Below, piece by piece: positions 23,343-62,444 of a stretch of DNA of 64,000 nt; position 1 is the first letter of the stretch; each line of letters begins with the position of its first letter. A model generated the notes under the pieces. The model was not told where the DNA came from and did no database searches. It saw nothing but the letters and a program-made list of their open reading frames with translations. The position numbers and the translations under genes are program-made. Source of the stretch: Naegleria gruberi (lineage: Eukaryota); the NCBI GenBank assembly GCA_000004985.1, contig GG738860.1, one strand, 5' to 3'.

Positions 23343-24466
23343 CCTATCATAGAGTTACACAATTTAATTCTCCTCATGCCTCCAATGTCCTTCCACAAAT
23401 ATTGAAACTCTTATCGGAGATTGAAAAGGAAAATCGAGTAAAAATTTTGTATGTTTGTGATGCTGGATCGAGAGCCATGTCGATTCATGATCAATCGGAG
23501 TGATTCTAGTGATTATGATGTTAGATTTGTATATGTTCATCCAGTTGATTGGTATTTGAGAGTTAGAGATGAAGTTGATTTGGAAATTAGAAAGAAGGTG
23601 ATGATTAAATTGGATCATTTGAAAGGAGATGAAACTGAGATTGATTTTGTTGGATATGAATTTAGGAAAATGTTGAGCTATACTGCAAAATCAAATCCTA
23701 CAGCAATGGAATGGATGGTTCAGAGTGAAATTATTTATTATTGTTATGATGAAAAGTGGTTGAAAGAAATGAAAGAATTTTGGAATGTTTATTATTTTAA
23801 TTTAAAGACAATTGGTATGTTCTTTCATTTGCTTTTTATTTACACAATTGATGTTTTGAATAATTTATATTTTACATATTTGGAAATATAGTATATCACT
23901 ATTTGAATATTGCAAAGGATAATTATTGTGATTATTTAAGAAACAAAGCAGAAGTGAATAGAAAAAAGTACATTTACGTAATGAGATGTTTATTGTGGGT
24001 TGAGCATGCCAAACTTTCTCACTTTTCAGCTTGGAAAAATGGACAAACTGTAGAAAAGATTACTCCAATTATACCTGTACCACCTTTCGATGTTAATCTT
24101 CTACTTTCTGAAACATTGGAAAAACAAAAGGAATATTTGGAATATCCTGAAAAGGATAAGTATCCAATACAGTTCAATTTCTTTGATAAGCAAACCCAAG
24201 CTCTTGAACAATTGAATTATTTGATTGATAGAAAGAAGGCTAGTTCTGGGCAATGGACTAAACAACCTAGAATTCCAGTATTAGACGATTGGCTCATGTT
24301 TCTTAGAATGGAAGAAAAAGTTTTTGCAGACAAGATTCTTTCACTAGAGAAGAGAAAGATTGATTGCATTACACAAGAAGAAAAGAACTCACTCCAACAA
24401 CGATTCGATTCTTTATTCTATGAGCATGTTATGGGTTTTGATAAGATTCCATCTGTATTAGAATAA
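23315..24466 (+). CDS. Pol-beta-superfamily nucleotidyltransferase, PF10127 (RlaP/YcgL)-like; frameshift near 23480-23495, intron about 23812-23891
   Basis: ILYVCDAGSRAMS ... SDSSDYDVRFVYVHP (GS...[DE]hDh NTase motif) split over two frames. GTATGT...ATATAG intron joins ...NLKTI-G to VYHYLNIAKDNYCDYLRNKAEVNRKKYIYVMRCLLWVEHA. Confidence 0.45.
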
Positions 24467-28209: not shown

Positions 28210-29925
28210 TTAAATAAATTCAAAGAATTCCCGCTCCAAATCTCCCAAACTTTCTGAAGGTTTAAAAGTAGGAATGTTTTCTGAAACAGTTTGTGAAATT
28301 TCTTGAAGGTATCTCAGTACCGATTGTAACCTTTCATCTCTTTGTTGAAGAGGAATAGCACCATTCGAAACTCCTTGAGGAGGCAGTATGGAATTGTAAT
28401 TTGGCATTGTGATAATGAGTGGATTCTTTTGTCTTTCCAATATTTCTTCCATTTCTCTTACAATATTAGAGCATTTGTTTTTGATTCTCAAATATTTCTG
28501 AGAGAGTGATTGAAGAGCACGCAAATCCTTTTCCAAAACTTGAAAATAATCGACATATAATGATTTACCATTGGTTATGAGTGGAAGATTGTTTTGTCTC
28601 AACCCAGATTCAATTAATTTACAAATTTCAATGTGAATTTCACTAACCAACATGATGATAATCCCAGCATCAGAATAAATGTATCTTTGTTATTCAATAC
28701 AAGATGTGAGATACATGCTGAATACATGCAATAAACTTACTTGAAAAGTTCATGTTCAGTGGACAGTGTAATTTTGAGAGCCATTTCCTCGACTAGACTC
28801 CTCAATTCTGGAATATTTCTGTAGAAGGATAAGCTTGTAGAATTGTAAGTGAAAATAATGTGTAATTGCATAAATTCTGTAAACCTTTCAGTTCTACAAT
28901 CATTAAATAGTTTAAAATGTTCTGATTTGAGTGAAACGACAACTTTGAATACAAAATCAATTACTTGTTTGAATAGCATACAATTTTCAGATGTGACTTT
29001 TGCTGTTTTCATATAATCTAATGTTCCAGTTGTTAATAAATTATCCAATTTCTGATCTACAGACAATTCCACAATCCTTGGCATGTGTTCAATAAACTCA
29101 GGTAATGCACTAATCAATTCATCCATTGACTTGGACAAAAAGACAGTTCTCCTCTCTAAATTCTTACATATAATATCAGTTGTATCTTTCAAGCATTCAC
29201 TCACAAAATTTTCAACCATTGACAAGTAAATCTTTCTCTTTAGAATATCTCCCTTTCCGTTATAAAATGCAGACAATTGCTGACATGCACAATACAAGTA
29301 ATAATTCTGGGAATGATCCACAAACAATTTCCCAATTTCCACTTCAGCATTCTTTGCATACTGATCAGCCAAATCCAATTCAGCTCTCAATTGATGATGA
29401 ATAGCCTTTATCGACAAGTAAAATGCATAAATACAATTTACATCTTCCAAATTTGAAATAAACTCATTTTCCTCCAATGAAATCTTCCTCTTTGAAATGT
29501 TCTCTATCTTTCCCAGATAATTATTCAGAAAATGTTCTAAAACGCCACGTTTAATAACTGGATGTCCTACACATATAAAATCAAAATATTCATCAACAAA
29601 AGTTCCATCACCTTCTTTTTTCTTTTTGAGATTTTCTTGATATAATTCCGAAGCTCTTCCTCTTTTTTTAGGTTCTTCATACTATTTAAATATTTAATTA
29701 TTGAATAATTAAATAAATGTAATGGAATTAACTACTAACCACACATTCTAAATTTCTGGAAACACAATAGGAACATTTAGGCTCCAACTTGTCGCACTTT
29801 TTGTGATTTCTTTTGCATTGGACACAGGATGGCGTTGAATTATTGTTGGATTTTTTCTTTTTTTTAGAGTTTGATGATGAGGAACAAGTTGAAGGAGAGT
29901 CGTTAGCATTCTCAAATTCCGACAT
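28210..29925 (-). CDS. Gal4-type Zn(II)2Cys6 binuclear-cluster transcription factor; exons 29925-29740, 29681-28741, 28642-28210
   Basis: CVQCKRNHKKCDKLEPKCSYCVSRNLEC = C-x2-C-x6-C-x6-C-x2-C-x6-C. Intron 29682-29739 (GTTAGT...AAATAG) splices in frame into YEEPKKRGRASELYQ...EYFDFICVGHPVIKRGV... Intron 28643-28740 (GTAAGT...GTTAG) joins ...EHELF-N-EIHIEICK. Confidence 0.6.
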
Positions 29926-30437: not shown

Positions 30438-31711
30438 ATGAAGGCTATGATTATTGAGGATTATTGTGAGGAACCAGATTTTAAATTGGTTACCGATTTT
30501 GAAAAACCTAAAGTTTCATCTTCCAAGCAAGTTCTTGTGAATTTAAAGACTGCTTCTGTCAATCCTGTGGATTACAAGTTGAGAAAGGGAGCAATGAAGA
30601 TGGCTGCATCTATGAAATTCCCAGCAATTCTTGGAAAGGATGGTTCTGGTGTTGTGGAGCAAGTCGGAGCTAAGGTTGATAGATTTAAAGTGGGAGATCG
30701 TGTGACTGGATTCTTGCCAAATAACAAAACTGGAAGTTATGCTGAGTATGCTGTGTTTGAGGACGATGAATTGACACTCTATCCTGACCAATTGACTCAC
30801 CAACAAGCAGCTGCATTTCCATTGGCTGGTAAGTTTCAAGCTAATTATTTTAACTAATTTGGAAATTTATCTTGTTTAAATATAATTGGAATTTCAATTA
30901 ATAATTGATCACAGGATGTACTGTTTTGGAAATGTATAGAAGACATCCACTTATTGGAGAAGTTTTAGATAGAGAAGGTGAAAGTGCCTACAAGACTGGA
31001 AAGATTTCTGATGCACTCACTGGTACAAAGAAGGATTTGAAAATTCTCATTATTGGAGCATCTGGCGGCACTGGTAGTATTGCTGTAATGGTTGCTAAAC
31101 AATTCTTGAGTAGATATTTCAACACCAAGATTTATGCAGTTTGTTCAGAGAGAAATTCTCAATTTGTTACTTCTCTTGGAGCTGATGTCGTAATTGATTA
31201 TAACAAGACCTCTGCAAAGGCCGGTGCTCACACTACACACGCATCTGGTGGTTTGGCAGATAGTATGAAGAGTATTTGTCAATTGATTAGTGAAACACAT
31301 GGTGACAAGTATGTGGATATTGTTATTGACACAGTTGGCGGATATTATTACTATGAGGATGTTTGTCAACATTTGGACTGTAAATCAGCTGAAAAGGGAG
31401 TTACATTCTCAACCATTTCTACACCTAATCCAAACGAATATACTTTGACCTTCTCCAGCTTGGTAAAGATTGGTTGTTACATTTCCTCAAACAAACTCAA
31501 ATCAATGTCCAGCTGCTATCCATCCTATCATATGGTATTTCTTGGAAAGAATGCAAAGGATATGAATTTACTTTTGAATCACATTGTTGTTTCAAATGAT
31601 GCCTACAAATTATTGCCTCTCATTCCATTCTCATTGGAAAATACTAAGGATGCTCACTTACAAATGCAATCTCAAAGAACAGTGGGTAAAATCATCATTG
31701 ACATTGAATAA
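30438..31711 (+). CDS. MDR-superfamily zinc-type alcohol dehydrogenase / quinone oxidoreductase-like; exons 30438-30828, 30915-31711
   Basis: KAMIIEDY...VLVNLKTASVNPVDYKLRKG...FPAILGKDGSGVV...VGDRV...YAEYAV...AAFPLAG|G...LIIGASGGTGSIAVMVAKQF (Rossmann GxGxxG). Intron GTAAGT...CACAG, phase 1. Confidence 0.75.
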
Positions 31712-43398: not shown

Positions 43399-45826
43399 AT
43401 GACAGCACAATCATCAATACCTCTCAAATGGCCTTCTTTGATAGAATTTCTACCAGTTGTCTTGGTTGGAATCATCATAGAGTGGTGTTGGGCAGATAGG
43501 AGTGGATTTGCTCTGGCCCAAACTCCAGAAATCAATCAGTATTTAGGATTTAGGATCATCACTGAACAAATTAATGCTTCTTCTACAATAGTTTCGAATA
43601 TTTCATCATCATCAAATGATTCGCTAATATGTCATCCAATATTATTGAGTCAAGGTTTTAAGAGTAACTTGGGGCTGTGTGATGATTATTTTTCTTCCTA
43701 TATTGTAATGGGAACTATTCTTTCATGTTATTCTATTCTTTTGCTGATAACATTGAGTGGTCTGTTCTACAAATTGAGGAAATTAAAACAGGCTGAACAG
43801 TTCAATCATTTAAAGGTGAACTTTATCAGTGCTAGAAATCCTGTCCTTATGATTTGGGGTGCAGTAGTTGGCTGGTTGTATACCTTAATCATGTCATCGA
43901 GGGTATTGATAGGTCGTAAGATATTCCCCTGTTTTTTATTTTCTCTAATCTACTACTTGTCTGTACCTGGATTGGCCAGCACTATTATCATTAGATGTGT
44001 TAGACTTATAGCCCTAACAAAGTTGCACGAATTGAAAGTTAGGATTGGAAAACGTGAAATGCTCCAAGAGAAGGAAGAAGGAAAAATAAGTACAATTCAA
44101 ATAACGAATAATAAGGAAGTGAAACAATTTGAAAATGAAAGTAATATCCAAATTGTCATTAAAATGGCAGAATCCTTTGATAATATTATGCCACCTCCTC
44201 CAATCTATAACAAACCTCTCTCCACTGACCTCTCCAATACGACAACCACTGTGACAACAATGACAACAAATAGCCAAGAGGAGACAGACACCCACTCAAC
44301 TAGAGAGCACAATTCATTTCATAATGAAGTTTGCGAAATGAATAATCATCAAAGAAGTAATTCTGTCATATCCAATGAAGGCTTACAACCATCATCTGTG
44401 AGTACCCCAAGCACTGTAAATACTTTGGTTTCCTGTGGAATGAGTGTTTCTCCATCGAGAACCTATTCTTCAGCAAATGGTGTTCTACATCTAATACAAT
44501 CAAATGATGAAGAACCATGTCAACAACATTCTATCATTGTGGATATTACCAAATTGCACGAATTGGATCTAAGTACTCGACAAAATGAACCCAAACAAGC
44601 AGATAAATTCTATGGTAATGAATTCAGATTATCTAATGTAAATTTTGAAAATGGAAAATTGTTGAGATTGTTAAGATTTCTAACAGGATCCAAATTCATC
44701 TTGATATTTTACATTCTCATATTGGGAACTCACACATTGGTCTATTTGATTGTGGGAATTGTTGATTATTTCAATTACAAAAGTCCAGATCCAAAACTCA
44801 ACAGCATCAATAAGAAGAATGCCTTTGTGGTGGATACATACCTATTCTCCCCAAATGGTTGTGGAACTGGAAGTTACAATACTAATTACTTCCTTGGAAT
44901 GTTATCAGTGTATGCTTCATTTTCAGTCTTGTTGGCCATAGTTGCCATTGTAGTGATGAAGAAGGATGTTTGGCAAGTGAAGAGAGAAGTTGTACTAGTT
45001 GCCATTAATTGGATTCTATGTATTGCAATTTTTGGTATTCCAAATATGTTCAGTAGTATTACCACATTGTAAGTATTAAATCTCATGTGTATTAATGAAT
45101 GATAATAATACTTCGAATAATAGAGTGGATTATTACTTTCCATGGACTTCTACCATCCTCTTGTCATGTTTATCAGACATGATAATTTCCTGTACTATTC
45201 CAGTGTTCTTCCTACAGCAAGTGGACAATTCTAATAGCAAGAATAACATCAAAGAAATTGGAGACGCTGATCTACACAAGTGTTTAAAGAATCAAAAGTG
45301 GAATGGTCTCTTTTTAAAGTATTCAGAGCAGTGTTTTGCTTGTGAAGATATCATGTTTTGGAATGCTGTAGAGCAATTCAAGAGTGTTACAGCAGAGAGG
45401 CTCAAGAGAGAACTCTTCTACAACATCTACAGGACCTATATTAGAATTGGAGCACCACTAGAGTTGAATATTGCACGAAGAGAGTTTGGAATACCAGAAA
45501 TTGAAAGTCAATTTAATGTTCTATGCAAGCAAGTATCCTATCATCATGAAACTTTATCAGTTGTAGGGAAATCCAATAATAATAATAATAATAATAATCA
45601 TCAAATGGGAATGTCCAAGTCGAGATATGTAGACTTGTCCAGCAGTGAGAATATTAGTGTGAGGAGTGATATCTTTGATCAAGTACAATTAGGTTGCGAG
45701 CACAATATGAGAGACAACTTTTATAGATTTAACTTGACTCATAGTGAAATGTCTGCTAAATTGGTGCGCAGAGGGTTGGTGCATAATGATGATAATGAAG
45801 GTGTCCTGTTCAACCCGGTTGAATAA
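43399..45826 (+). CDS. seven-transmembrane protein fused to a C-terminal RGS domain (7TM-RGS); intron near 45070-45180, exact junction unresolved
   Basis: Multiple hydrophobic helices in 43399-45072. RGS core LHKCLKNQKWNGLFLKYSEQCFACEDIMFWNAVEQFKSV...LFYNIYRTYIRIGAPLELNI. GTAAGT at 45070. Confidence 0.6.
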
Positions 45827-46938: not shown

Positions 46939-47766
46939 ATGGCTACTCAAGCACCACCACAATTAAATCAATCCTTCAGTGGTATTGGTTTTGGTAATCA
47001 TCATAGGCTTCCTCAACAACAGCCCCTCAAGACGCCAGAACGAAGACCTCTAAGGGCCTCTTTCCAAGCATCATCATCATCTCAAAAGACCACCCTATTG
47101 AATCCAATCATCTCAAATACACCAAATATCCAACCGACTCCAATTCTTAATAATAAGGCAACACCAAGTACACCAACACCAAATCGTCATGCTCATCACT
47201 CTCGATCTAAATCCTATTGTGGAGTTGCACACTATGGCATTGGCTCCACCACTGAAATTATCATTACCAGTAAATCAAGGCTCCAGAACAAGTTGGTTAA
47301 GGAGGAACCTGTTCATTCGTCACCTTCAATGCTATTGGATGATAAGGAGAATGCAGTGAATAATCTACCACCACCTCCTTCTCCTTCAAAAGCTGTCCCC
47401 CAACATTTCAATTCGGATGCAATGCCATCTTTGCCTGCATTGGCTGCTGTGAAAAAGTCTTGGCAATTGAACTCACCTCAAAAGAATGGATCCACTCCGA
47501 CAAAGAAACGTTCAACATCTTGTTTAACTCCATCGACACCATTGAGTATTTCAACAAGTTTGACCACCATTAGAGAACCTCTTACAATGGTTCTCACCCC
47601 AAAGAGTAGAGCAAGATATCAAGGTATTTCAGGAACACACAAATTCAATGCCTACAGTAGAATTAATAACATTGATGCCATCTCTATTTCTATATCTGAA
47701 GATGAAGGTACTGAGGTTTGGTGTGGTGAACGTAAGGGTATTATTGCAGTAAGTGTTTTCAATTGA
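46939..47766 (+). CDS. Ser/Pro/Thr-rich ORF, possibly the 5' exon of the downstream WD40 gene
   Basis: 275-aa ORF ending at a GTAAGT (47749). Junction to the WD40 ORF not resolved in frame. Confidence 0.3.
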   Translation: MATQAPPQLNQSFSGIGFGNHHRLPQQQPLKTPERRPLRASFQASSSSQKTTLLNPIISNTPNIQPTPILNNKATPSTPTPNRHAHHSRSKSYCGVAHYGIGSTTEIIITSKSRLQNKLVKEEPVHSSPSMLLDDKENAVNNLPPPPSPSKAVPQHFNSDAMPSLPALAAVKKSWQLNSPQKNGSTPTKKRSTSCLTPSTPLSISTSLTTIREPLTMVLTPKSRARYQGISGTHKFNAYSRINNIDAISISISEDEGTEVWCGERKGIIAVSVFN

Positions 47767-47888
47767 TTTCTGACTAACTTTATAATACTATTGTTTATAT
47801 TGATATCAAAAATTTACCAGATATTCGACACCAATTCTTGTAAACCAGTATCAACAATATATGAGGAGAAGGAGAAACTCTACGTTTC

Positions 47889-49787: not shown

Positions 49788-52550
49788 ATGACACGAATTG
49801 CACCCTCAACGGATAAAGATGAAGAAATGGATGATAATCATGCATTATCAGATGAAGACTCTCAACAAGAAGAGGTAACTCCAAAAGAGAGGAAACCACC
49901 AGCCTCTATCAAGTGTCTCTTAATTGTATTGGTGGTTGTCGCTGTTGTCGCCACCGTTCTTCTTCTCACGACCATTTGGATTTCATGTTTCTCATCGAGT
50001 GTTTCATCCCTTTCTGTCTCACTCATGTCAGAACAATTTACCAAAATCATAAGTTTCACAGACTCTACTATTAAGGATGTAATAATGGTCTCTGAGAATG
50101 CAAAGAATACCATGTGGTGGGATTANNNNNNNNNNNNNNNNNNNNNNNNNNNNNNNNNNNNNNNNNNNNNNNNNNNNNNNNNNNNNNNNNNNNNNNNNNN
50201 NNNNNNNNNNNNNNNNNNNNNNNNNNNNNNNNNNNNNNNNNNNNNNNNNNNNNNNNNNNNNNNNNNNNNNNNNNNNNNNNNNNNNNNNNNNNNNNNNNNN
50301 NNNNNNNNNNNNNNNNNNNNNNNNNNNNNNNNNNNNNNNNNNNNNNNNNNNNNNNNNNNNNNNNNNNNNNNNNNNNNNNNNNNNNNNNNNNNNNNNNNNN
50401 NNNNNNNNNNNNNNNNNNNNNNNNNNNNNNNNNNNNNNNNNNNNNNNNNNNNNNNNNNNNNNNNNNNNNNNNNNNNNNNNNNNNNNNNNNNNNNNNNNNN
50501 NNNNNNNNNNNNNNNNNNNNNNNNNNNNNNNNNNNNNNNNNNNNNNNNNNNNNNNNNNNNNNNNNNNNNNNNNNNNNNNNNNNNNNNNNNNNNNNNNNNN
50601 NNNNNNNNNNNNNNNNNNNNNNNNCTGCTTCAAATGAGACTGATATATCGGGGATCAACTTTGATTGGTACTTTGGATTTGATATTTCTGTTGCAACTAT
50701 TAGTAATTATCTAAAAGATATAACTGAAAAAATCACTGGATCTTTGGCTTTTATCATTGAAATTGAGACAGAATTTATTGTTGCCTCAAGTTATCCAGAG
50801 ATTCCCGTGACCAAATGGGATGATAAAGGAAATCAAGAAAGAAAGAAGGCTATCAATTTTGGAGTACCAGAAGTTGAGCAAGTTGGTCTATTCCTCTATG
50901 AAAGATATCAGAAAAAGTTGGATTCATTAAGTTGTGGAACTTTTGAGTTTTTATCATTTCAGGATAGATATGTTAATGTGTATAGAATGTGCAATCAAGC
51001 CAACATTAATTGGTAAGTATCCTGTAAATATTAATTACTGACCGGTGGAAAAGGTTATTTGTATTCTCAGTTCCTCAATGGAACTATCTAGGAACCATGA
51101 TTATCGCCATAATTGCAGCTCTTTCTTCATCTATTGTAATTGTCATTGTTGGTCTCTTATTTGGGGTATATTCCTCCTTCAAGATTGTAAAGCCGTTCCA
51201 TAATTTAATAGATTTATTTGCAAGTGTTTCAAACATGGATTTGGATAATATCATTGTTCTTCCATCTCCTTTCAGAGAAGTTCATCAATTACAATTACAC
51301 TTCAAAACTATGGTTGTTAAGATTAAACAATATCGATGCTTTATTCCTCCTCACTTACTAGCTCAAATTGATGCCGAAGGAGCTGGTGATGAAAATGATA
51401 GGGATTTTGAAAAACCTTCCATTAGAGCCGCCAAGGATCACAATACAACACAATCTTCTCTGAGAAGTGGGAAATCTTCGAGACATTCTGGAATTTCACG
51501 TTCAGGAAATGCAACATCAAATTATCATTCAACCTCCAACCAATCATCATTCCGTCCCGTCTCCAAATCACTTTTCAAATTGGGGCTTGAAAAGAAGAAG
51601 ATTACAGTGGCCAACTTTTATTTTGTGGGATTGGACTATTGTATGGAAAATTTATCAGACTCAGAGCTTGTAACAGTAATGTCAGATTATTTCGAAGTCA
51701 TTCAAAAAGTTGCCAAACTCACTCTAGGACAATTGGGTTCTTTTGAGGATAATTCAATGACCATCAGCTGGAATTCAACATCAGAAGTTTCCAATCATGA
51801 AGAGAAGGGTGTTGCCTCCTCTCATCAAATCCTCCTTAAACTTTCACAATTGAAAGAAACTAAATGGAAAAAGAAGGAACATTTAGTTAAGAAAGATTTA
51901 TTACAAAACGTTGATTTTAGAGCTTCAATTTTAACACAAGTTTGTAGATGTGGTAATTTAGGTATGTTTAATTGATTGAAATTTAGTCTAATTTACATTA
52001 TTAGGTACGCAAGAAATTAAAACCTACTCAATTGTTGGAAGTTATCTTCACAATTTACACAAGATTATGAAACATGGTTTGAAGTTGAATGTCAAATTGA
52101 TTGCTTCTGAGGAAACTTTGTTTAAATCGAATGATACTCACCAACATAGATTGGTGGGAGTGAAGAAGGTTCTTTCTCCAGATGAAACAAGCGCAGAATT
52201 CTTCTCTGACTCTCAAAAGGTAAATAAGAGAAAGATTAAATTATTTGAGATTGGAGAAACTAATCAAGTCAATGAGGATGGTAAGTTTATTTTACAATTT
52301 CTTTGAAATTTTTAAACGAACACAATCAGAGTGGATGTATGAATTACAACAACATAAATCAAAGGAAAAATGGAAACTCTACAATGAAGCCTGTCTATTA
52401 ATGGAAGAGGAAAAGTATGAAGATGCCATTACTAGTTTCGAATCCTACTTGTTATCATATAGAGCAGAAACCAATGAAGATATATGTGCTTGTTATATGA
52501 TTAAGAAATGTTACAAATTGCTGCAAAACAAAGCTAACCAAAACAATTGA
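49788..52550 (+). CDS. two-TM receptor with extracellular Cache-like sensor, HAMP-like linker and a degenerate (likely inactive) class III cyclase-homology domain plus helical C-terminus; 5 exons, interrupted by assembly gap
   Basis: TM1 LLIVLVVVAVVATVLLLTTIW. Sensor ITGSLAFIIEIETEFIVASSYPE. TM2 IIAIIAALSSSIVIVIVGLLFGVY. KITVANFYFVGLDYCMENLSDSELVTVMSDYFEVIQKVAKLTLGQLGSFEDNSMTISWN parallels cyclase VTVLFSDIVGFTSL...YFT...IE..GGTV.KFIGDAVMAVFG with both metal Asp replaced. Introns 51976-52018 and 52272-52331 verified in frame. The 51017-51095 junction is not in frame. Confidence 0.5.
50126..50624. other. assembly gap (499 N)
   Basis: Run of N inside the CDS above. Confidence 1.
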
Positions 52551-52695: not shown

Positions 52696-54969
52696 ATGAC
52701 ACAGAAAAAACAAAAACAGAAGAAGGCAAAGAAGGAGAAGGAACTTTGGGGAGATGATGTTTCTCCCATGCCAACCACCATGAAGGATTACTTTGCACAA
52801 TTATCACAAGATTGTTCCGAACAGGAGGCAACCATTCTTGATCATGAACCTGTACAACACTGTAAGAAGGAACGAAATCCTCCGAGTGAAAAGAAGAAGG
52901 AAAAGAAAAAGAATGCCCAGCCAGCATCTTCTTCAGTTGCCGCCACTTCTTCGGACGTTGTGGATAATGATGAGAATAATGAAACTGATCGTGGAAAAAC
53001 GCAAGAATCTAAAAAGAAGAAACAAATGTCGAATAGTGATTATTTGGAATTATTGGAATCTTCTCTTGATGATGAAGAGAAGATGATTTATTCGAATTCA
53101 TCAAGGATTACAACAACTGCAGCAATGACATCATATATCTATGCAACACCATATAAAGTACTACCACCAGTACAGCCACCCAAAAGAATTGAGCTACCTC
53201 CAACCTTTGACAAGATTGAAGATCTTCTTAAGGAACTCAGTTTAACCTTTGAATATTTCAAAGTTCAGGATAATTCAACAAGCAAAACAATATATTTGGA
53301 AAAATTAGTCCACATGACAGATTCTCTCTCTAAAAAGTGTTTTCAGAAGGCAGATAAGAATGCTATTTTCATGCTAGGAGGGTTGAATTTTGTATGTGTA
53401 TTGTTTGCATATTTTGCCTCTGGAGAGAATGAAAATGAACAATATGAAAAGATTATCAATTCACTTTCCTATGTTCTGTATAGATTTTCAGATCACAATA
53501 GAGCTAGAAGTGCCATGTTGACAACTGGTGTATTCTATTCTCTGTGGTATGTTGGAGGGTTGAGTAAGAATATTTCTACACTTTCACATGTGAACGAAGT
53601 GATTGACTTGTTGGGAGGTCAATTATCTATTGGATTCGAGTTGAGTAATCTATTGACCAAATCAAATAGCCAACTATTGGATATTTCTTACATTTCAACA
53701 GAAAAGACTGTTGATTCTTCATCACAAACAATCTATTCAGATGGTTTCACTTTCCCAGATACATTTTTGGGCGTTGGAACAGATTTTGTATCATTATCGG
53801 AGAATAACTTTCCAATCCAATTACATTATTCGATTATCATTTCTAGAACTAGTAATTTCCTCTCTGATTTTTGTGTCAAGTGGGATCCAACAACGGGACA
53901 AGTTGTAGAGAATTCTAAAAACCCTGGCTTTTATCTAATGAAAGATAGTAACATTTCTTGGTATGCTCTTTTGAAATTCGTACAGTTATTGTACACTGAC
54001 AAAATTTCTGTATGTAAAGAAGAAAGAGAAAGAGAGCTGAAGAATAGGAATTCAATTTTTGAATCCAAACTAGTGTCGGAGGGTTTTCCTCGCTTATTAA
54101 CTACATTGAGAAATCAAAAAACTAGGGAAAATGCCATAAATTGTATGAGCACTTTAACATCTATGGAGGATCACGAGGAGTGTGATAATGGTGGACTATT
54201 TGATGAATTCGATAATGAGCTCGTCAATGATGAGTTGAATTACTTTTTTGGAAAGCCACTCAATTATTGGTATTTACCAAAACCAAAAGAGAATAACTTC
54301 TCAACTGATTTTTTGAGAAAAAAGGAGAAAATTAGACAACAAGCAATTTTATTGAGTGGATTGGAACAAGATCTGGGATCTTTATATGTGGAAATGATTA
54401 GCAGTCAGACATTTAAAGCCGAGGAAGCTAAAGCTCTGTCATTCTATCCAAATGTTAAGGTAATGCTCGCCGACACTCTCGGAGAAATAGACCACATTTT
54501 GGAAGAGCATATTAATTCAATTCCAGTTTTGAAGAATATTATTGATTGTAAAGGATTCTACCTTCACAAATCAATACTTGCAACAAGAAGTGAATTTATG
54601 AAAAAGCTAATGCAATACGATTTGGAACAAACAGAAAATGGCATGGATGTGGTCTATATCAACAACTTTTCCCTTTCAACTTTATTCACAGTTTTCCAAT
54701 TCATGTATGGTGGATTGAGTGAAGAAGGTTTCCCACTCCTCTTCACTGAAAACTTAGTGGAATGCTTTTTAGCAGCTGACATGTTTCTTCTCTTTGGATT
54801 GAAAAAGTATGCAGAACAGAAAATATGTGAACAAATTACATTGGAAAGTGTACAGGATCTATACCACATTTCAATCATTTACAATTCTGACCTCATTAAG
54901 GATAAGTGCATTGAAATCATGTCCAAGAATAATATTATCTATGAGAGTGATATCAAAAAGTTAAAGTAA
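52696..54969 (+). CDS. BTB/POZ-domain protein with Lys-rich N-terminus
   Basis: C-terminal DCKGFYLHKSILATRSEFMKKLMQ...VVYINNFSLSTLFTVFQFMYGG...ENLVECFLAADMFLLFGLKKYAEQKI (BTB plus BACK-like). Confidence 0.6.
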   Translation: MTQKKQKQKKAKKEKELWGDDVSPMPTTMKDYFAQLSQDCSEQEATILDHEPVQHCKKERNPPSEKKKEKKKNAQPASSSVAATSSDVVDNDENNETDRGKTQESKKKKQMSNSDYLELLESSLDDEEKMIYSNSSRITTTAAMTSYIYATPYKVLPPVQPPKRIELPPTFDKIEDLLKELSLTFEYFKVQDNSTSKTIYLEKLVHMTDSLSKKCFQKADKNAIFMLGGLNFVCVLFAYFASGENENEQYEKIINSLSYVLYRFSDHNRARSAMLTTGVFYSLWYVGGLSKNISTLSHVNEVIDLLGGQLSIGFELSNLLTKSNSQLLDISYISTEKTVDSSSQTIYSDGFTFPDTFLGVGTDFVSLSENNFPIQLHYSIIISRTSNFLSDFCVKWDPTTGQVVENSKNPGFYLMKDSNISWYALLKFVQLLYTDKISVCKEERERELKNRNSIFESKLVSEGFPRLLTTLRNQKTRENAINCMSTLTSMEDHEECDNGGLFDEFDNELVNDELNYFFGKPLNYWYLPKPKENNFSTDFLRKKEKIRQQAILLSGLEQDLGSLYVEMISSQTFKAEEAKALSFYPNVKVMLADTLGEIDHILEEHINSIPVLKNIIDCKGFYLHKSILATRSEFMKKLMQYDLEQTENGMDVVYINNFSLSTLFTVFQFMYGGLSEEGFPLLFTENLVECFLAADMFLLFGLKKYAEQKICEQITLESVQDLYHISIIYNSDLIKDKCIEIMSKNNIIYESDIKKLK

Positions 54970-55183: not shown

Positions 55184-56785
55184 ATGTTGTCAGCCCTCTC
55201 ACAAAATATTCTTTCTAGTAGTACTGGTTCAAATGGGAAAAGCCTTTCCGATGTGTTGAAGAATGATAGGGAATCACTGTTGAAGAATCCGATCCAACTT
55301 ATTCAGCTAATTCATCACGAAATTGATCACATGGTTGAAAAATCAAGGAAAATTGAAGGAGAGTTGAGTACTCACTTTTTGAATAAGGATTCAAGCATGT
55401 TTGTTAAAAAGGAAGATGATGATAAGAATTCTTCATCACCAATTACAATGATTTCACAATTTGTGGAAAAGTTGAATGGTTCTGAGGGTGGAGTCTTGGC
55501 AAGCTTTCCAATTAATACTGAGCTTGTTGAAAAATTCAAAGGATCTTCTGATATATTACTGAAGGCCTTTGATACTATCAAGGATCATTTGGGAGATGGT
55601 TCACTTGTTTCAGGTGGGTGTATGTTTAGTATTGTTGCATGTTGTGTTGCTGCCATGTTGGAAGAAATTGAAAATAATGCAAAGGAAGAATGGCAGAAAC
55701 TCTATTCAGAAGCAAAGGAAACTATTGATGAATTCAAACAAAAGATTTCATCTACACTAGTGGAAACTATTGCCAAGTTGAAGGAAATTGGAACTGAAAC
55801 ATTGAATGAAATCAAACGATCCATTCAAAAAGGTTGTGAGTTGGCCTCAAGTTTCCCTAAGGAAGTTAGAGAAGAAATTGAGAATATTGCAAAGAGACAT
55901 TTGGAAGAGTTCAAGAATGTCACCAATCTCATGAAACACTTGAAGGAAAAGAACTTTTTAACAAATCAATTCGAACAATTCCATCAAGAGTTCAAGGCTC
56001 TTGTCACTAGTTTTGCCGACAGATTTATCAAGGAATTATTAGGAAATATTATTGGAACCATTGTCAAATTTTTTAAATCTATTGCTCAAGTCTTTAGAGG
56101 TTTGATTAAGGAATCTTTTGGAATTATTATTGAAATTGTGAAAAAGATCTTTGAATTTGTCAAGTCAGCCCCAGAGAGATTGAGAAAGATATTTGACTTT
56201 TCAGGAAATTGTATGGCCATGCTATGTTTATCTGCTCCACAGGAGATGATTGATAAGGCAGCCAATGAAGCAACCAATTTAATGAACATGATTCCAGTCG
56301 ATAAGATTATTTCACCACTCGAAGAANNNNNNNNNNNNNNNNNNNNNNNNNNNNNNNNNNNNNNNNNNNNNNNNNNNNNNNNNNNNNNNNNNNNNNNNNN
56401 NNNNNNNNNNNNNNNNNNNNNNNNNNNNNNNNNNNNNNNNNNNNNNNNNNNNNNNNNNNNNNNNNNNNNNNNNNNNNNNNNNNNNNNNNNNNNNNNNNNN
56501 NNNNNNNNNNNNNNNNNNTTCAACTCTATTGTAGCTCAAGCAGAGGAAAAGATGGAAGGAATTGAAAAACTTACTCCTCTCTTTGAAGAACAACTCCATC
56601 TCTTCTCTCAATTTGATTCTGATTTAGATCATGTCAAAGTTCTTGTGGCCGAAATTGAAGAAAAGGGAATGAATCTTGTTGGAGATAAACTTGACAAGGT
56701 TTTAGAAAAGGTTTCAGATGTATTACACATACCAAAACTTGGAGGAGAATCATCACCACTTGCTGGTATTAAAAAGTTGTTCTAA
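55184..56785 (+). CDS. alpha-helical repeat/coiled-coil protein of unknown function (interrupted by 192-N gap)
   Basis: 533-aa ORF with heptad-like EEIENIAKRHLEEFKNV, IAKLKEIGTETLNEIKRSIQ. Confidence 0.4.
   Translation: MLSALSQNILSSSTGSNGKSLSDVLKNDRESLLKNPIQLIQLIHHEIDHMVEKSRKIEGELSTHFLNKDSSMFVKKEDDDKNSSSPITMISQFVEKLNGSEGGVLASFPINTELVEKFKGSSDILLKAFDTIKDHLGDGSLVSGGCMFSIVACCVAAMLEEIENNAKEEWQKLYSEAKETIDEFKQKISSTLVETIAKLKEIGTETLNEIKRSIQKGCELASSFPKEVREEIENIAKRHLEEFKNVTNLMKHLKEKNFLTNQFEQFHQEFKALVTSFADRFIKELLGNIIGTIVKFFKSIAQVFRGLIKESFGIIIEIVKKIFEFVKSAPERLRKIFDFSGNCMAMLCLSAPQEMIDKAANEATNLMNMIPVDKIISPLEEXXXXXXXXXXXXXXXXXXXXXXXXXXXXXXXXXXXXXXXXXXXXXXXXXXXXXXXXXXXXXXXXFNSIVAQAEEKMEGIEKLTPLFEEQLHLFSQFDSDLDHVKVLVAEIEEKGMNLVGDKLDKVLEKVSDVLHIPKLGGESSPLAGIKKLF
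56327..56518. other. assembly gap (192 N)
   Basis: Run of N. Confidence 1.
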
Positions 56786-57192: not shown

Positions 57193-60100
57193 ATGTTTGT
57201 TGTTTCCCCTTCCAAAAAAAAACAATCTCTACCCAAAAAATTGTACAAGTTTTACCTTAGACACTGTTTCCTTAGAGAAAACAACAAAAATATCAACACC
57301 AGCAGCACTCATCACTCTATTCAATCTATCTATTTGGTCATGAATAGTACATCTAATATTTTAGCCACGGGGGATGTATCGAGCAGTTTGGGAAGAGACT
57401 CTCGTTCATTTGAGAGAGGTTTCTTCTCCATGGCTACATCTCAGGCTCATGTGGGAGGAAGTGGTTCCATTGTTTCTAGTAATTCGAATGGTGATGGCTC
57501 CGATTCATTATCTGAATATACAAATTCTTCCATTGTGGCCAGTTTTGAGGAGAAGATTTCCACATTAATCTTGAGTCTACAACAACATTCAGGCTTGAAA
57601 GAAACAAATTGGTGGAACTTTTTCTTTACACTTTTCTATCATTGTATTGTTATATGGAGTATGGTATTTCTTCCGTCCATAGACGAGAGAGGTATGAATT
57701 GGGATGCCAATGGAAAGTGGTTGTGGAGAGCAACCAATTATTTAGTAACTCTCTCCCTCAATATTTCTTCCTTTGATGTTGTCATTGGTATTCTGGTGGG
57801 TTTCTTTGTTATTATTACTACATGTATTATCATGGTAGGTGTATCATATAAGGCCATCCAATCAACGAGCAAATATTGGAATAGAATCAAGGTGATCACA
57901 AGAGTAGTATTGGGCTTTCTTCTTTTAACTTCAATGATTTATTCCTATGTCTATAGTTTGATTCTGTCATGTAATTATGGCACCAAAGTTCAATTAGTTG
58001 TTAATGAACAAACTGTGGAGGTTTTGCGAGACTTTCAACTTGTGGCTTGTACAAGCTCTATGAATTCTGCTTTCATTGCTGTGGGTGGTTTCTTTTTCAT
58101 TGTTTTACTAGTACTAAACATACTAGCAACACTAGTTCTCTTTGACAACAATCCAACGAGTAAGAATTGGTTTTGTGCAGAGACCAACCTTGCCTTTATT
58201 CCAATAGTACCATTGAGTAGCGTTTTTATTATCCTGATGGGTGTGTTACCTAATCGAGCTTCATTTGCTTTTATTCTTCCAATTATTTACATTGTTTTTT
58301 CTCTAGGATATATTGTATTCTTCTTCTACATGTTACCCTTCTACCGAAGAATGGAGAACTCTATATATGTTGGATTTCATTTTGCTAGGTTAGGATCTGC
58401 TATTGGTTATTTAATTTCTAGTATTGTAAATAACATCTCAGGAGTATCAGACACTGTGAAATTAGGCATGTTGGGAGTTGTATTGGGACTGGCTATTATA
58501 TTTGCAATTTCTGCCTTTTTTGCATGTGAATTGTACTTGAGATTGGCTTGTGCCTCCATTAGACAAATTTTAACTGAAAGTGAGCTCTCCAAAGATGAAA
58601 AAACTGGAGGAGGAAGTGTAGCTGTCAATATTGAACGAGATGCAACATTCCTCTATCAAATTATAGAATCTCAAGGCAAACTAAGACAATTGAAATTATT
58701 CTTCCGTTTCTGCAAGTCTTACAAGAAGATGGTTGGTGATGATATATACACTGATCTGGACTCATGTCTCAGATTAATTAAGGGGTTATTTTCTCAGAGA
58801 ACCACCAGTAAGATGCCTTTTGGTGTTTTACTTTCCTCTGCTGTTATTGTTGCCTATTTTAATCCAATTATTGTATTGAGTATTTCAGTTTCAACAACAA
58901 TGCTAAAGAGAGCTCAAAAACAAGTGCACAACATTATTGGAAGATATCTTGTCTTGGAGAAGACTAAAGATTTTGAGTTCCTCTATGGTAAGGATGCATC
59001 TGGTAAAAACATTATGGAAATTAAGAATTTGATTTCCAAATTAGAAAGGAAGCAATTAATTATTCATTATTTACACAAGGCCTTTTGGAAAGAATTTATT
59101 CAAAACGATCAGATTGATGTTGGTAAGGTGGAGAGTATTAATAGACAAATTACCTCCCTCACTTTATCTTGTAACAGTTCGTACGAGGCTCTCTCACAAA
59201 GTTATCCAAGTGACAAGACTATAATCAGATCTCATGCAAGATTTGTTGAAGAATGTTTATTTCAACCTGAAAGTGCTAATGAAATGTTCCAAGAAGCTCA
59301 GCAAATTGAAGAAGAAGAAACTGTTAATGCAAGAAAGTTCTTACAAAAGAATAGGACAAATAAGATTGTTCCAACCATGTCCACTCTAATAATTGATCAT
59401 TCAACTGAGCAAATGAAACAAAATCCAATTAATTCGTCAATGGACCACGATGACGATATTGAAAATGAAAGATTTGATGGTGTTGAAAATACAGAGTCAG
59501 CCACCAAAAAGGTAGACTTGCTATTCAGATCCTCCCTTGCCTATTCTATGAAAAATCAAATTCAACTTTCATCATTTATTGTATTTTCCATTATTTCAGT
59601 AATCTTATTATTGTGTGGTATGATTTTGAGCATTGTAATCTCCTTAAATGTTTCGGGAGATATTTATTTATCCAAAGATATATGTATGCCGGCTGCTGTA
59701 CCACTTGGGTTAACAAGAAGAGTAAGAGAGAAACAAGCAAGAATGACACTTCTCCCTTCTGATATGGAATGGCAAGCTAATCATGTTTCAAAATTGCAAA
59801 ACTTTTTCAAAACTCTTCACACGTTACAAGATTTGAGTAGCACTAATGAGATATCTCCTGCAGTAAGAGCTGATTATGTAAAGAACACAAGAAAATATCG
59901 TCAACCATTGTTGATTTATTCAGACACCAATGTGAATGTTTGGAAGAATTATTCAATTGATAGAAATATTTCTGTTGCAGATATTACAACTTCACTGATC
60001 AATAACTGTGAAGTGATGATTGATTATACTGATGAACAATACAATCATACTGCTGATAGTATGAATTTCATGTACCTATACCTTAATAGAATTAACTTTA

Positions 60101-62444
60101 GTTTAGGATATGAAACATTTTGTAATGAATTCTTGCTTAGAAATCAAGAAAAGAGTACCATGTACAGAGATACCTTCCTTATTTACTATGCATCTTCAAC
60201 TGCCTTGTACGTATTGTGTGCTCTTGTCATGATTCTAGCTACCAATTATTTCCTGTCCTCCCTAAAAGATGCAATCAAGTTGATAGACAAACGTATTCCA
60301 AAAGATAAGATAGGAAAGATTTATCAAACTTTGAATACAAAGATTAATGACGACATGCAAATAGGAAATTCCGGTTTGTTTGCTACGCTTACTAAACCAA
60401 ATAATCTTATTGCTATATTAGTTATTTCTATCATAGTGGTTACAGTTGGATGTGTTTCATTATTCTTTGTTGAGACTACCATTAATTCTCAATTTTCTGC
60501 AAACGCCATTCAAAATATTCAAGCCAGTGTGGTAATTATCATGACTTCACAACGTATTGGTTTGAGATTACAGGAAATTTTCATTTATGGTGTGAAGGAT
60601 ATATCTAGCAGCTTGCCATTAAAGAAATCCACCTTAACTTCAGCCACTGAACTTCAAAATTTCCATGAAGACCACAAAAACTTGGTCACTCTTATTAGAA
60701 CTAAATGGAATGGTTTACTTTATGGTACAGAAGATAATGACTATCAAAAATTGACAGGTGTTTATCAAAAGATTGATAATATCATTAATGGTATTGATGA
60801 TCGTAATCAAACAAGTTTGATTAATGGTACATCTAGTTGTGAAAGTTTGTCTGATCTCATTACTTATATCCTTAACTCGGGCACTTTATTCAATGAAGAC
60901 GTTTATTACAATCCAAACAAGTACACTGGTCCACAAGTATTTGCATGGTCTCAACAATTGTTTTTCAAAATAGATCACTTGGGAGAATCTCTTACTAAAT
61001 TTATTGAAGCATATTCCAATTATGCAAAGAATCCATCCCTTGCCATTACAATTTCTTTCTTTATATTTGGTTTCATAGCTCTGATTGTTTTGATTTATAT
61101 CACCTATACATCAATGAGATCTTTCTGGGATGAATACAAACAGTTTAGAATAATGTTGAACTTTTTCCCAAGTGACTTGTTGGATGATGAGGTATTGAAA
61201 AAGTTTATTCTCCACAAGGAACTTCCATCAAAAATACAAATCAAGAAGAAACAAACTTCAGCTGCAAGTGGATCAGAAATTAATGACGTAATGCACAGTT
61301 CTGTAGACGGAACAGTAATGTGTAATGAAAAGGGTGAAATTTGCTTATTCAATCCTGTAGTGGAAAGTTTCTTCAGTCTCAAAAGTGGAGATGTAGTAGG
61401 ATTGAATGTTTTAACACTTTTTAGTGAACCTTATCATGGACCAATCAGTAAAGTTATGAACCACTTGATTGACAAGTCTATAACAAAGGGAGAATCTCAT
61501 GAAGTGGAATGTGTAAGAAAGAATCAATCCTATTTCCCTGCAAGAGTTAACATTTTTGCAAGCCATGCCAAGATTATTTTCATTATTAGAGACATTACTG
61601 CTGAAAAGAAACAAAACATCCTTCTTGAAGAAGAGAAGAAAAAATCCGAGTCCTTATTGAGAAACATCCTTCCAGAGGAGGTGGCCAAACGTTTAAAGTC
61701 AGGTGAAACATTTATTGCCGATAATTTTCCTGATATTACATGTTTCTTTTCTGATATGGTAGGATTTACAGCAATTAGTTCCACAATGACAGCCACTGAT
61801 CTCGTTAAAATGTTGAATACTATTGTGAATGGATTTGATGATTTAACAGACTTCTATAAATTGGAAAAGATCAAGACTATTGGTGGTAAGTTTTTAGTGA
61901 TTATATTTTAAATAACTATTGAGTAGATGCTTACTTTTGTATTGGAGGTATTTCTGTTGGTCACACATCAAGCGATCACCCAGAAAAGGTTTTAAAGTTT
62001 GCCATTGATGTTTTTAATGTTCTAAAGAGTTATAATTCTCAAAATTTTGACAAGCAAATTAATATTAGAGCTGGATTAAATACAGGTAGTGCTGTTGCAG
62101 GAGTAATTGGTAAACGAAAATTTGCTTTTGGTAAGTTGGAATAGTTACTGAGCTTGGATTTTAATATTTTACAAGACTTGTGGGGAGACGCGATTAACAC
62201 CGCTTCTAGAATGGAAAGTACATCTGAAACTGGAAGAATTCAAGTTAGTAGATCAACTTATGAAAGAGTATACGATTTGGGATACTCATTTGAGGAAAGA
62301 GAGCAAAATGTTAAAGGAAAAGGAATGATGAAATGTTATTTATTAGACAAGTCCCATCATGTTGATCCAATTGTAAGGGATAACTTTACTACAACAGATT
62401 TTTCTGATGTCGACAGCAAGGATGATCAAATTGTGTACAAGTAG
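57193..62444 (+). CDS. large multi-pass membrane protein with PAS domain and C-terminal class III adenylyl/guanylyl cyclase catalytic domain; exons 57193-61885, 61927-62130, 62176-62444
   Basis: More than 12 hydrophobic helices. PAS: VDGTVMCNEKGEICLFNPVVESFFSLKSGDVVGLNVLTLFSEPYHG...ARVNIFASHAKIIFIIRDITAEK. Cyclase: FFSDMVGFTAISS...LEKIKTIG|DAYFCIGG...RAGLNTGSAVAGVIGKRKFAF|DLWGDAINTASRMESTSETGRIQVS. Introns of 41 and 45 nt (GTAAGT...AG). Confidence 0.8.

Follow-up and report, generated by a model that had tools for sequence, protein, structure and literature searches.

The mycobacterial Rv1625c/Cya (PDB 5o5k, 7yzi, 4p2f) is a membrane-anchored homodimeric class IIIa adenylyl cyclase. It shares with the Naegleria gruberi protein discussed here a single catalytic domain per chain with all six canonical catalytic residues, a transducer helix before that domain and a polytopic membrane anchor. 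The sequence matches are at 1e-49 to 1e-50, and for homodimeric catalysis Rv1625c/Cya is the closest mechanistic parallel. However it is a bacterial protein with a simple 6-TM anchor, and lacks the PAS domain, TPR region and large putative extracellular loops of the N. gruberi protein.

The top-scoring solved relatives are AC9, AC8 and AC5 (AC9 at 3.8e-63), and both C1 and C2 of AC9 align to the single Naegleria domain, including the helical segment LLRNI(L/I)P..VA..LK. The mammalian enzymes and Dictyostelium ACA also resemble the N. gruberi protein in having roughly twelve TM helices, but theirs are in two 6-TM cassettes with two unlike catalytic domains, which form a pseudo-heterodimer with one active site, whereas the N. 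gruberi protein has one catalytic domain, an unrelated TM layout (7-8 + 4), and PAS and TPR regions. A preliminary description of the locus drew this contrast with the two-domain animal and Dictyostelium enzymes, and it holds, there being a single PF00211 stretch. A membrane adenylyl cyclase of ACA type was ruled out by that single stretch and by the 7-8 + 4 TM helices with TPR and PAS in between. G-protein regulation cannot be inferred from the likeness to AC9, AC8, AC5 or ACA.

Dictyostelium TmcB (“tiny macrocysts protein B”), the namesake of PF25474, to our knowledge has no cyclase domain. It shares the TPR_TmcB domain with the N. gruberi protein (64 bits, well above threshold), a likeness demonstrated only for this TPR segment of about 100 aa. 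TmcB is reported to regulate cAMP signalling (Muramoto et al. 2005, as cited in PMC12750705), which fits the direct fusion of TPR and predicted adenylyl cyclase in N. gruberi. Soluble guanylyl cyclase (H-NOX-PAS-CC-CHD), cyanobacterial CyaB1 and the LOV/BLUF photoactivated cyclases have the same order of sensor, coiled coil, transducer and catalytic domain, but are soluble, whereas the N. gruberi protein is a membrane protein without H-NOX. In such PAS-linked class III cyclases the signal is passed by a change in helix register or orientation (PMC5995499).

With regard to the locus itself, the sequence indicates that it is a real three-exon gene of N. gruberi NEG-M, with a product of about 1670-1720 aa. 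The window (the whole stretch of 64,000 nucleotides analysed) was assigned to NEG-M from exact matches of five of its other ORFs to NEG-M proteins. Taken as a whole the locus is best explained as a three-exon gene for a class III adenylyl cyclase of receptor type, homodimeric and specific for ATP, and we think this probably correct. Residue numbers throughout count from the ATG at 57193 (1721-aa protein). The features are as follows.

57340..61885, + strand: exon 1 from its probable start codon; N-terminal tail, all TM helices, TPR region, PAS, coiled coil and first third of the cyclase domain
57610..58557, + strand: predicted N-terminal TM bundle, residues 140-455; seven strongly hydrophobic helices and one amphipathic (386-413)
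58618..59346, + strand: putative cytosolic all-helical TPR-like region, residues 476-718, from model secondary structure
59011-59322, + strand: TPR_TmcB (PF25474), residues 607-710; 1.2e-17, 64.4 bits (cutoff 27)
59557..61119, + strand: predicted second membrane module, residues 789-1309
61288..61602, + strand: PAS domain, residues 1366-1470; PF13426 at 4.3e-12 and PF00989 at 9.3e-6, ending in a conserved DIT motif (IIRDITAEKK)
61603..61719, + strand: coiled-coil linker and cyclase transducer element (...EEEKKKSESLLRNILPEEVAKRLKSGETF), residues 1471-1509
61720..62348, + strand: class III cyclase catalytic domain (PF00211), residues 1510-1690, with both introns inside
61753-61755, + strand: codon of D1521
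61873-61875, + strand: codon of K1561
61885 and 61927-61928, + strand: codon of D1565
61886..61926, + strand: intron 1, 41 nt, GTAAGT...GAGTAG, phase 1, within the codon of metal-binding Asp1565
61927..62130, + strand: exon 2, 204 nt; rest of the D1565 codon to ...KRKFAF and the first base of the D1633 codon
62067-62069, + strand: codon of R1612
62130 and 62176-62177, + strand: codon of D1633
62131..62175, + strand: intron 2, 45 nt, GTAAGT...TACAAG, phase 1, within the codon of adenine-specifying Asp1633
62176..62444, + strand: exon 3; remainder of the catalytic domain and a non-conserved tail of 31 residues, with stop TAG at 62442-62444
62196-62198, + strand: codon of N1640
62208-62210, + strand: codon of R1644

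The protein was described as multi-pass, and a Kyte-Doolittle scan gives 11-12 hydrophobic helices. The AlphaFold model, in which the helices of the first bundle mostly have pLDDT >85, suggests that this bundle has 7-8 TM helices, the choice between 7 and 8 being uncertain. The loop charge bias is weak and topology was taken from model and hydropathy, which suggest that the first bundle is followed by the cytosolic TPR region and four more helices with two extracellular domains. A disordered acidic linker (residues 720-767) follows the TPR region, and the second module then runs in the order TM9, domain A, TM10, a short cytosolic loop, TM11, domain B and TM12. In the model (pLDDT 84-85; pTM 0.80 for the TM9-12/ecto module) ecto-domain A (residues ~823-993) is helical with a beta-hairpin, and ecto-domain B (~1100-1279) is helical. 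The TPR_TmcB domain, the two putative extracellular domains and the gene-family context are additions to the preliminary description.

Fold comparison of the ecto module gave generic helical bundles at 4-14% identity, including the bacterial periplasmic four-helix-bundle/NIT sensors NasR, PilJ, PcaY, NarQ and TorS; scores nearly as high were reached by designed helical bundles, talin and spectrin, and the Pfam search found no NIT or 4HB match in the N. gruberi protein. The likeness to these sensors is one of modelled fold. Ecto-domain A is about as well conserved in the Naegleria lovaniensis ortholog (68% identity) as the catalytic domain (69%), yet is among the most variable regions between paralogs (0.34 vs 0.75). 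Conservation between orthologs with variation between paralogs is the pattern to be expected of a receptor, and a sensor role for the modelled ecto-domains is plausible. The membrane part could instead be a transporter or channel, with the cyclase reporting on, or gated by, transport or ion flux. There are precedents in the K+-channel-adenylyl cyclase and P-type-ATPase-guanylyl cyclase fusions of ciliates and apicomplexa. We consider this unlikely for the N. gruberi protein, and treat the membrane part as a putative ligand receptor.

The PAS domain of the preliminary description is present (PAS_9 in Pfam, 4.3e-12, residues 1372-1470), and a LOV motif of NCRFLQ type is absent from its sequence as read from the family alignment. 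The nearest solved PAS domains are those of DosP/EcDOS of E. coli (6e-5) and FixL (0.018), both haem-PAS domains, which raises the alternative of a haem gas sensor of the DosP/FixL type, with a cyclase regulated by O2, NO or CO and the membrane part a mere anchor. A His (in EPYHGP) lies 3 residues upstream of the site aligned to the proximal His77 of DosP and is retained in the N. lovaniensis ortholog (SESSHAT). However the residue aligned with His77 itself is Ile, the nearby His is not kept by the paralogs, and RpfR, with a fatty-acid-binding PAS, scores about as well. We regard a haem sensor as unlikely.

The coiled coil and transducer segment that follows is the most conserved of the family, with 79% identity to the ortholog and 0.77 column conservation. 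It aligns to the helical segment before C2 of AC9 (LLRNIIPYHVAEQLK), and for its transducer part we use the concept of the cyclase transducer element (CTE; PMC5995499).

The catalytic domain matches the PF00211 profile over its full length (1.8e-51; 174.8 bits, with a cutoff of 21.9; residues 1510-1690, profile 4-182 of 183), and this was the only PF00211 stretch found, in line with the single domain reported earlier. The hallmark motifs listed for it, FSDMVGFT, IGDAYF, RAGLNTG and DLWGDAINTASRME, are all in the spliced product. The metal aspartates D1521 (FFSDMVGFT) and D1565 (TIGDAYF) align with the Asp residues of AC9 C1, and the transition-state-stabilising N1640 and R1644 (DAINTASRM) with the AC9 C2 motif NIASRM. 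The specificity pair is K1561, directly before TIGD (KIKTIGD), and D1633 in DLWGD, which we take to be the counterparts of K938 and D1018 of AC2 (Tesmer 1997; Linder & Schultz 2003). One domain therefore holds the full set of six canonical catalytic residues (D1521, D1565, K1561, D1633, N1640, R1644). Homodimerisation had been presumed from the single domain, and this was sound, as the two metal Asp of C1 type and the Lys, Asp, Asn and Arg of C2 type are all found in that one domain. Because it carries the metal aspartates, the Lys/Asp pair and the Asn/Arg pair, a homodimeric and ATP-specific cyclase is predicted.

A check of the substrate-specifying residues had been proposed, and K1561/D1633 point to ATP, in place of the Glu/Cys of the GTP type, so that from its sequence we predict an ATP-specific adenylyl cyclase. 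Guanylyl or dual specificity needs to be weighed, as both activities fall under PF00211, the significant PDB matches include receptor and soluble guanylyl cyclases (1e-20 to 1e-40), and soluble guanylyl cyclase has a similar order of PAS, coiled coil and CHD. However Lys and Asp, not the Glu/Cys of guanylyl cyclases, are at the specificity positions, and the closest solved relatives are adenylyl cyclases, AC9/8/5 and the homodimeric Cya/Rv1625c at 1e-49 to 1e-63, with guanylyl cyclases weaker at ~1e-40. Nor did the Pfam search of the protein find an H-NOX match; HNOBA reached 16.1 bits, under its cutoff of 23.4, with only profile positions 190-216, its C-terminal helix, weakly matching the coiled-coil/transducer segment. 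Guanylyl or dual specificity is thus very unlikely, and an adenylyl cyclase remains the preferred reading.

The gene model rests on an ORF at 57193..61911 (+) of 1572 aa in the ORF listing for the window. The G+C content of the window is ~33%, for which stops make up ~7.5% of random codons, and by arithmetic from that frequency the chance of an open stretch of this length is ~1e-53. The ORF of 1572 aa is as first described, but as an exon length the figure is wrong, as 8 of its codons are read-through of intron 1, which meets TAA at 61909-61911. Exon 1 ends at 61885, with 1564 codons and 1 nt counted from 57193, and its last base, G, is the first base of the Asp1565 codon. Removal of 61886-61926 and 62131-62175, as in the original splice model, gives a clean frame: 57193-61885, 61927-62130 and 62176-62444 join into a CDS of 5166 nt with one terminal stop, encoding 1721 aa. 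The start at ATG 57193 is doubtful. The sequence comparison makes ATG 57340 (1672 aa) the more likely start codon, because the N. lovaniensis ortholog aligns only from about residue 60 and its own ATG is directly preceded by an in-frame stop. The stretch 57193-57339 has A-runs and no conservation, and 57193, the first ATG of the ORF, probably lies in the 5' UTR.

The two introns, 41 and 45 nt with GTAAGT...AG, are exactly as stated in the preliminary description, which however took them to be as short as spliceosomal introns get. They are ordinary here: other candidate introns joining long ORFs in the window are of 41, 43, 44, 55, 56, 68, 72, 77 and 86 nt, and the eight introns of the ortholog are of 45-68 nt. 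Ciliates and nucleomorphs have far shorter introns, of 15-30 nt. We infer that both are unremarkable U2-type GT-AG introns, of a length usual in Naegleria: they have GT...AG termini, their removal restores frame and domain, and the ortholog has an intron at or near each site. Intron 2 is identical in position and phase to the 56-nt intron 7 of the ortholog (FAY|DMWGD), and a 50-nt intron of the ortholog lies 5 nt downstream of the intron 1 site (GDA|YF, phase 0). The PF00211 match is without gaps, and the alignment to AC9 C1/C2 ungapped, across both splice junctions. Several homolog fragments known only as ORFs end at the intron 2 site. The published neighbouring model EFC46058.1 appears to be truncated by short introns.

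No N. gruberi protein was retrieved for the locus: five variants were absent from a collection of 15 billion proteins, and the homology searches returned no N. gruberi match. That the locus is a pseudogene or truncated gene, with introns retained and a stop at 61909-61911 leaving a membrane/PAS protein whose cyclase domain would be incomplete and inactive, would agree with this and with the unspliced ORF ending in intron 1, but is scarcely credible given that exons 2 and 3 are open in the needed frames and encode perfectly conserved catalytic motifs, both introns have canonical GTAAGT...AG ends, an intron of the ortholog lies at or next to each site, and 69% catalytic-domain identity to the ortholog over all three exons is unexpected for untranslated sequence.

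The ortholog, C9374_008680 (P0001), has 59% identity over 95% of the length, is labelled [quoted passage not shown] and agrees with the N. gruberi protein in its Pfam matches (TPR_TmcB, PAS, PAS_9, Guanylate_cyc). It differs in having 8 introns against 2, with the position of intron 2 common to both, in its N- and C-terminal tails, which are not conserved, and in its flanking genes. Naegleria fowleri and N. lovaniensis paralogs (e.g. FDP41_011611, FDP41_001627, C9374_003576) have the full architecture and the K/D residues in common with it, and our literature search found no experimental characterisation of C9374_008680 or the Naegleria paralogs. The family numbers at least 100 sequence clusters, with 133 representatives, and the members named to organism are all Naegleria and have a common architecture. 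TPR_TmcB and PAS were found in 28 of 30 members and PF00211 in 25 of 30; for P0035, the one apparently cyclase-less model inspected, the cyclase domain had been called as a separate adjacent gene. The K and D pair is kept in every member where the motifs were found. Distant non-heterolobosean matches (e.g. Cyanophora P0150) cover only the surroundings of the TPR, residues ~520-770. Naegleria species encode 80-108 nucleotidyl cyclases (PMC9928731, PMC9283941), and the N. gruberi gene is an unexceptional member of a large cyclase family in Naegleria.

We envisage that two chains would dimerise through coiled coil and catalytic domains, with two symmetric active sites at the dimer interface as in Rv1625c/Cya. 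The two helical loops would be extracellular and serve as the paralog-specific sensing part, and a conformational signal would reach the PAS domain from TM12 by way of the conserved juxtamembrane segment. The PAS domain may also bind another cue, from the cytosol. From there the signal would be relayed by the DIT-motif coiled coil and the transducer element, changing how the two catalytic domains are oriented to each other and so setting the rate of cAMP synthesis.

Far more tentatively, the TmcB-like membrane/TPR module may be an unrecognised eukaryotic receptor unit with cAMP as its native output, fused in Naegleria to PAS and adenylyl cyclase, and with twin extracellular helical bundles sensing paralog-specific ligands. 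This we regard as doubtful. If true, the cyclase-less Dictyostelium TmcB would act in trans on the cAMP pathway, explaining its reported role as a regulator, and the expanded Naegleria family would amount to a set of dozens of chemoreceptors that signal without G proteins. The TmcB link is a gene-fusion hint at how Dictyostelium TmcB might work.

Current understanding is not overturned by the locus, which provides a clean, corrected gene model for one Naegleria cyclase. Short introns (41-55 nt) truncate ORF-based models in the N. gruberi genome, and Naegleria cyclase counts and domain inventories may be affected by annotation. The locus also points to a whole sub-family of one architecture, with a TmcB-type TPR, four TM helices and two helical ecto-domains, PAS, transducer and catalytic domain, and the putative ecto-domains, conserved between orthologs and variable between paralogs, are the place to seek ligands.

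The gene at 57193-62444 (+) is predicted to encode a receptor-type homodimeric adenylyl cyclase, a member of a family expanded in Naegleria. Five other long ORFs of the window are exact full-length N. gruberi NEG-M proteins (EFC46044, EFC46049, EFC46056, EFC46058 and EFC46183), and G+C is about 33% throughout, which matches the value published for N. gruberi (PMC8296547). The locus is thus a nuclear gene of this heterolobosean amoeboflagellate.

The ORF scan of the window found an ORF of 1572 aa at 57193..61911 (+), which the preliminary description took as the first exon. However this ORF includes 8 read-through codons, and exon 1 ends at 61885. The splicing proposed there does hold, as joining 57193-61885, 61927-62130 and 62176-62444 gives an open 5166-nt CDS for 1721 aa with a single terminal stop. 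Both removed segments start with GTAAGT and end with AG, and their lengths are 41 and 45 nt as described. With regard to the start codon, the alignment with the N. lovaniensis ortholog, C9374_008680, begins only at about residue 60 of the product, and a stop codon lies directly before the start codon of that ortholog, so that ATG 57340 is a more likely start than ATG 57193. The segment 57193-57339 is A-rich and not conserved.

Word-index homology searches, using either the full protein or its N-terminal 1287 aa, found the N. lovaniensis ortholog alone and no N. gruberi protein. An exact look-up of five model variants in a collection of 15 billion proteins found none of them, and neighbouring N. 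gruberi proteins are present in that collection. The cyclase gene may be missing from the published N. gruberi annotation, or mis-modelled in it.

The single catalytic domain (CHD) of the preliminary description is a near-complete match to PF00211 (1.8e-51, residues 1510-1690, profile positions 4-182 of 183). The best matches to solved structures are adenylyl cyclases, AC9 at 3.8e-63, then AC8 and AC5, and the homodimeric Cya/Rv1625c group of mycobacteria (1e-49 to 1e-50). Guanylyl cyclase structures score weaker, at 1e-40 or worse. The one CHD aligns with both halves of AC9, and has the C1-type metal aspartates (D1521 and D1565) together with C2-type Lys1561 (just before TIGD), Asp1633 (within DLWGD), Asn1640 and Arg1644. 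The reference residues in AC2 are K938, D1018, N1025 and R1029, of which the first two are replaced by Glu and Cys in guanylyl cyclases. In the AC9 alignment Lys1561 and Asp1633 form the adenine-type pair, and as they fit the established assignment of K938 and D1018 in AC2 the enzyme is predicted to be ATP-specific. Since each chain would be able to supply every catalytic residue, homodimerisation is expected, as had been presumed, and we infer a symmetric dimer with two active sites like that of the homodimeric Rv1625c.

The alignment with bovine and human AC9 is ungapped across both exon junctions (…KIKTIGDAYFCIGG… and …KRKFAFDLWGDAINTASRM…), and the chosen splice sites thus restore the CHD exactly. 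The exon structure of the ortholog was rebuilt exactly from its genomic locus (L001), showing eight GT-AG introns 45-68 nt long. Its intron 7 (…KKFAY|DMWGD…, phase 1) is identical in position and phase to N. gruberi intron 2, and its intron 6 (…TIGDA|YFCVGG…, phase 0) is 5 nt 3' of N. gruberi intron 1 (…TIG|D, phase 1). Several ORF-only homolog fragments from metagenome or SRA assemblies end exactly at FAY|D or MLNxIV|G, which are ortholog intron positions, and the gene call for the homolog in GCA_041937235.1 is broken at a phase-1 intron in FFS|DMVGF (about 7215-7284 of its locus, L003). The intron positions in the ortholog and the fragment ends at intron sites make the two introns credible on comparative evidence.

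The 5-nt offset and change of phase between ortholog intron 6 and N. gruberi intron 1 could reflect intron sliding or independent gain. Over L001 6001-11412 and window 57340-62444 there are eight introns in the ortholog versus two, the N. gruberi sequence being continuous at six of the positions. Both N. gruberi introns are phase 1 (61885-61928 and 62130-62177) and each falls within the codon of a catalytic Asp, the metal-binding D1565 and the adenine-specifying D1633; the phase-1 intron of the GCA_041937235.1 homolog is likewise within the codon of the first metal Asp, in FFS|D. This may be coincidence or a preference for G|AT as insertion site.

The two introns had been presented as being at the lower size limit for spliceosomal introns, and this we do not uphold. 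Introns of 15-30 nt occur in ciliates and nucleomorphs, and a scan of the window for GT..AG segments joining long ORFs gave candidates of 41, 43, 44, 55, 56, 68, 72, 77 and 86 nt. Beside these candidates of 41-86 nt in the same window, introns of 41 and 45 nt are ordinary in size for the N. gruberi genome.

Candidate short GT-AG introns joining long ORFs, from the scan
15986-16053, strand not stated
20994-21037, (-)
23815-23891, strand not stated
28685-28740, (-)
30829-30914, strand not stated
47749-47820, strand not stated
51013-51053, strand not stated
51962-52004, strand not stated

The scan suggests that several multi-exon genes of the window would be fragmented under ORF-based calling. 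The 55-nt candidate at 45069-45123 (GTAAGT…AATAG) joins ORF 43399..45072 (+), which is the published EFC46058.1 (557 aa, about 6-7 hydrophobic segments), in frame to ORF 45095..45826, which has an RGS domain (PF00615, 1.9e-9). Joined over 43399-45826, the two would encode a 7TM-RGS-like protein of 790 aa, a kind described in N. fowleri, and read-through into the intron seems to have truncated the published EFC46058.1 model. Elsewhere, G+C is low (0.256) at 50001-52000, where a tandem-repeat check of the 50-52 kb region found none, and within 49788-51016 long ORFs overlap one another, in several frames of both strands, with no Pfam match.

The PAS domain of the preliminary description was also found, with PAS_9 at 4.3e-12 (residues 1372-1470) and PAS at 9.3e-6. 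Its C-terminal end is a DIT motif, followed by the transducer helix. Within the family no part is better conserved than the segment EEEKKKSESLLRNILPEEVAKRLK before the CHD. It aligns with the helical segment preceding AC9 C2, and corresponds to what has been described in class IIIa/b cyclases as the “cyclase transducer element” (PMC5995499). HNOBA matches weakly and below threshold, over only the helix preceding cyclase domains (residues 1475-1501).

Among solved structures the PAS domain comes closest to haem-PAS domains, those of E. coli DosP/EcDOS (6e-5) and of FixL (0.018), and to RpfR. Family conservation gives a haem-PAS reading no support: the proximal His of DosP aligns to Ile, and a His three residues upstream of that position is kept in the ortholog and absent in paralogs. 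Haem binding is for these reasons rated a minor possibility.

The multi-pass membrane part was borne out by hydropathy, with seven strong hydrophobic segments within residues 140-455 and four more at 788-826, 994-1025, 1064-1099 and 1280-1309. Between them is a TPR_TmcB domain (PF25474, 1.2e-17, residues 607-710) that had been missed. An AlphaFold model of residues 130-1329, made from 43 family sequences (mean pLDDT 83.8), predicts 7-8 membrane helices bundled at the N-terminus, then a TPR-like, all-helical region at 476-718 and a disordered linker. After the linker four long helices run on beyond the membrane and lead into a pair of helical domains, ecto-domain A at about 823-993 (with a beta-hairpin) and B at about 1100-1279. 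Modelled on their own, residues 775-1335 give a compact structure of good confidence (pLDDT 85.2, pTM 0.80).

TPR domains are normally cytosolic, and as the PAS domain and CHD must be so too, the simplest placement of both large loops in the predicted topology is extracellular. The near-invariant cysteines and N-x-S/T sites of the loops agree with this; the charge bias is weak. Foldseek with the 1200-aa N-terminal model against PDB gave nothing below E = 0.07, and only generic solenoid/TPR proteins. Fold matches of the ecto-module have 4-14% identity, with designed bundles, talin and spectrin scoring about equally, so that the fold searches are not diagnostic. The modelled ecto-domains would be helical bundles of the general type used as sensors in bacteria, with no claim of homology.

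A HMMER scan with the N-terminal 1200 residues against 1.84 billion representatives gave 133 proteins at E ≤ 1e-3, 55 of them at E ≤ 1e-30. Named full-length members are from N. fowleri and N. lovaniensis, labelled only as cyclase-domain-containing or hypothetical. TPR_TmcB and PAS_9 are present in 28 of 30 representatives and PF00211 in 25, and of the members whose motifs were found, all keep the Lys and Asp pair. “Cyclase-less” members are rejected as a class of their own: in the single case examined PF00211 is in the next called gene, the model having been split at an intron. Distant relatives, for example a Cyanophora paradoxa protein, share the TPR_TmcB region alone, often with PAS.

Identity to C9374_008680 is 59% over 95% of the length, with ecto-domain A and the TM10-TM11 hairpin (68-71%) as well conserved as the CHD (69%). 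When paralogs are compared, the ecto-domains rank among the most variable regions (conservation 0.34-0.35 versus 0.75). Such a pattern, conserved between orthologs and variable among paralogs, is as expected for putative ligand-binding parts in a diversified receptor family.

Two genes lie upstream.

52696-54969, same strand as the cyclase gene, BTB-domain protein gene
55184-56785, same strand as the cyclase gene, gene without assigned function

Downstream, ORFs longer than 60 aa are absent for over 1 kb. The ortholog has different neighbours (P5-ATPase and methyltransferase genes upstream, RTC and eRF1-like genes downstream), so no gene cluster is conserved between the two. A search with the upstream neighbour gave only an ENA metagenome contig (ERZ929261, k127_235050), too short to reach the cyclase gene. 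It encodes a protein 99% identical to the 55184-56785 product, and an N. gruberi-like amoeba is thus present in that public metagenome.

A literature search gave no paper on this particular architecture and no experiment on any family member, and almost no full text on TmcB. The Dictyostelium TmcB, namesake of PF25474, resembles the N. gruberi protein in the TPR segment, and is a cAMP-pathway regulator according to Muramoto et al. 2005 as cited in PMC12750705; the TPR_TmcB-cyclase fusion is consistent with that reported role. At least 81 cyclases are given in a Naegleria pangenome study (PMC9928731), and N. fowleri has 80, of “diverse topologies and domain combinations”, 62 of them expressed, with PAS among the domain abbreviations of the figure legend (PMC9283941).

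Overall the locus, architecture and main interpretation of the preliminary description stand, and the micro-introns as a striking feature do not, being ordinary for this genome. The more interesting parts are the TmcB-type module and the twin ecto-domains it had missed, which we put forward as hypotheses, and the gene adds one member to the known Naegleria cyclase family.
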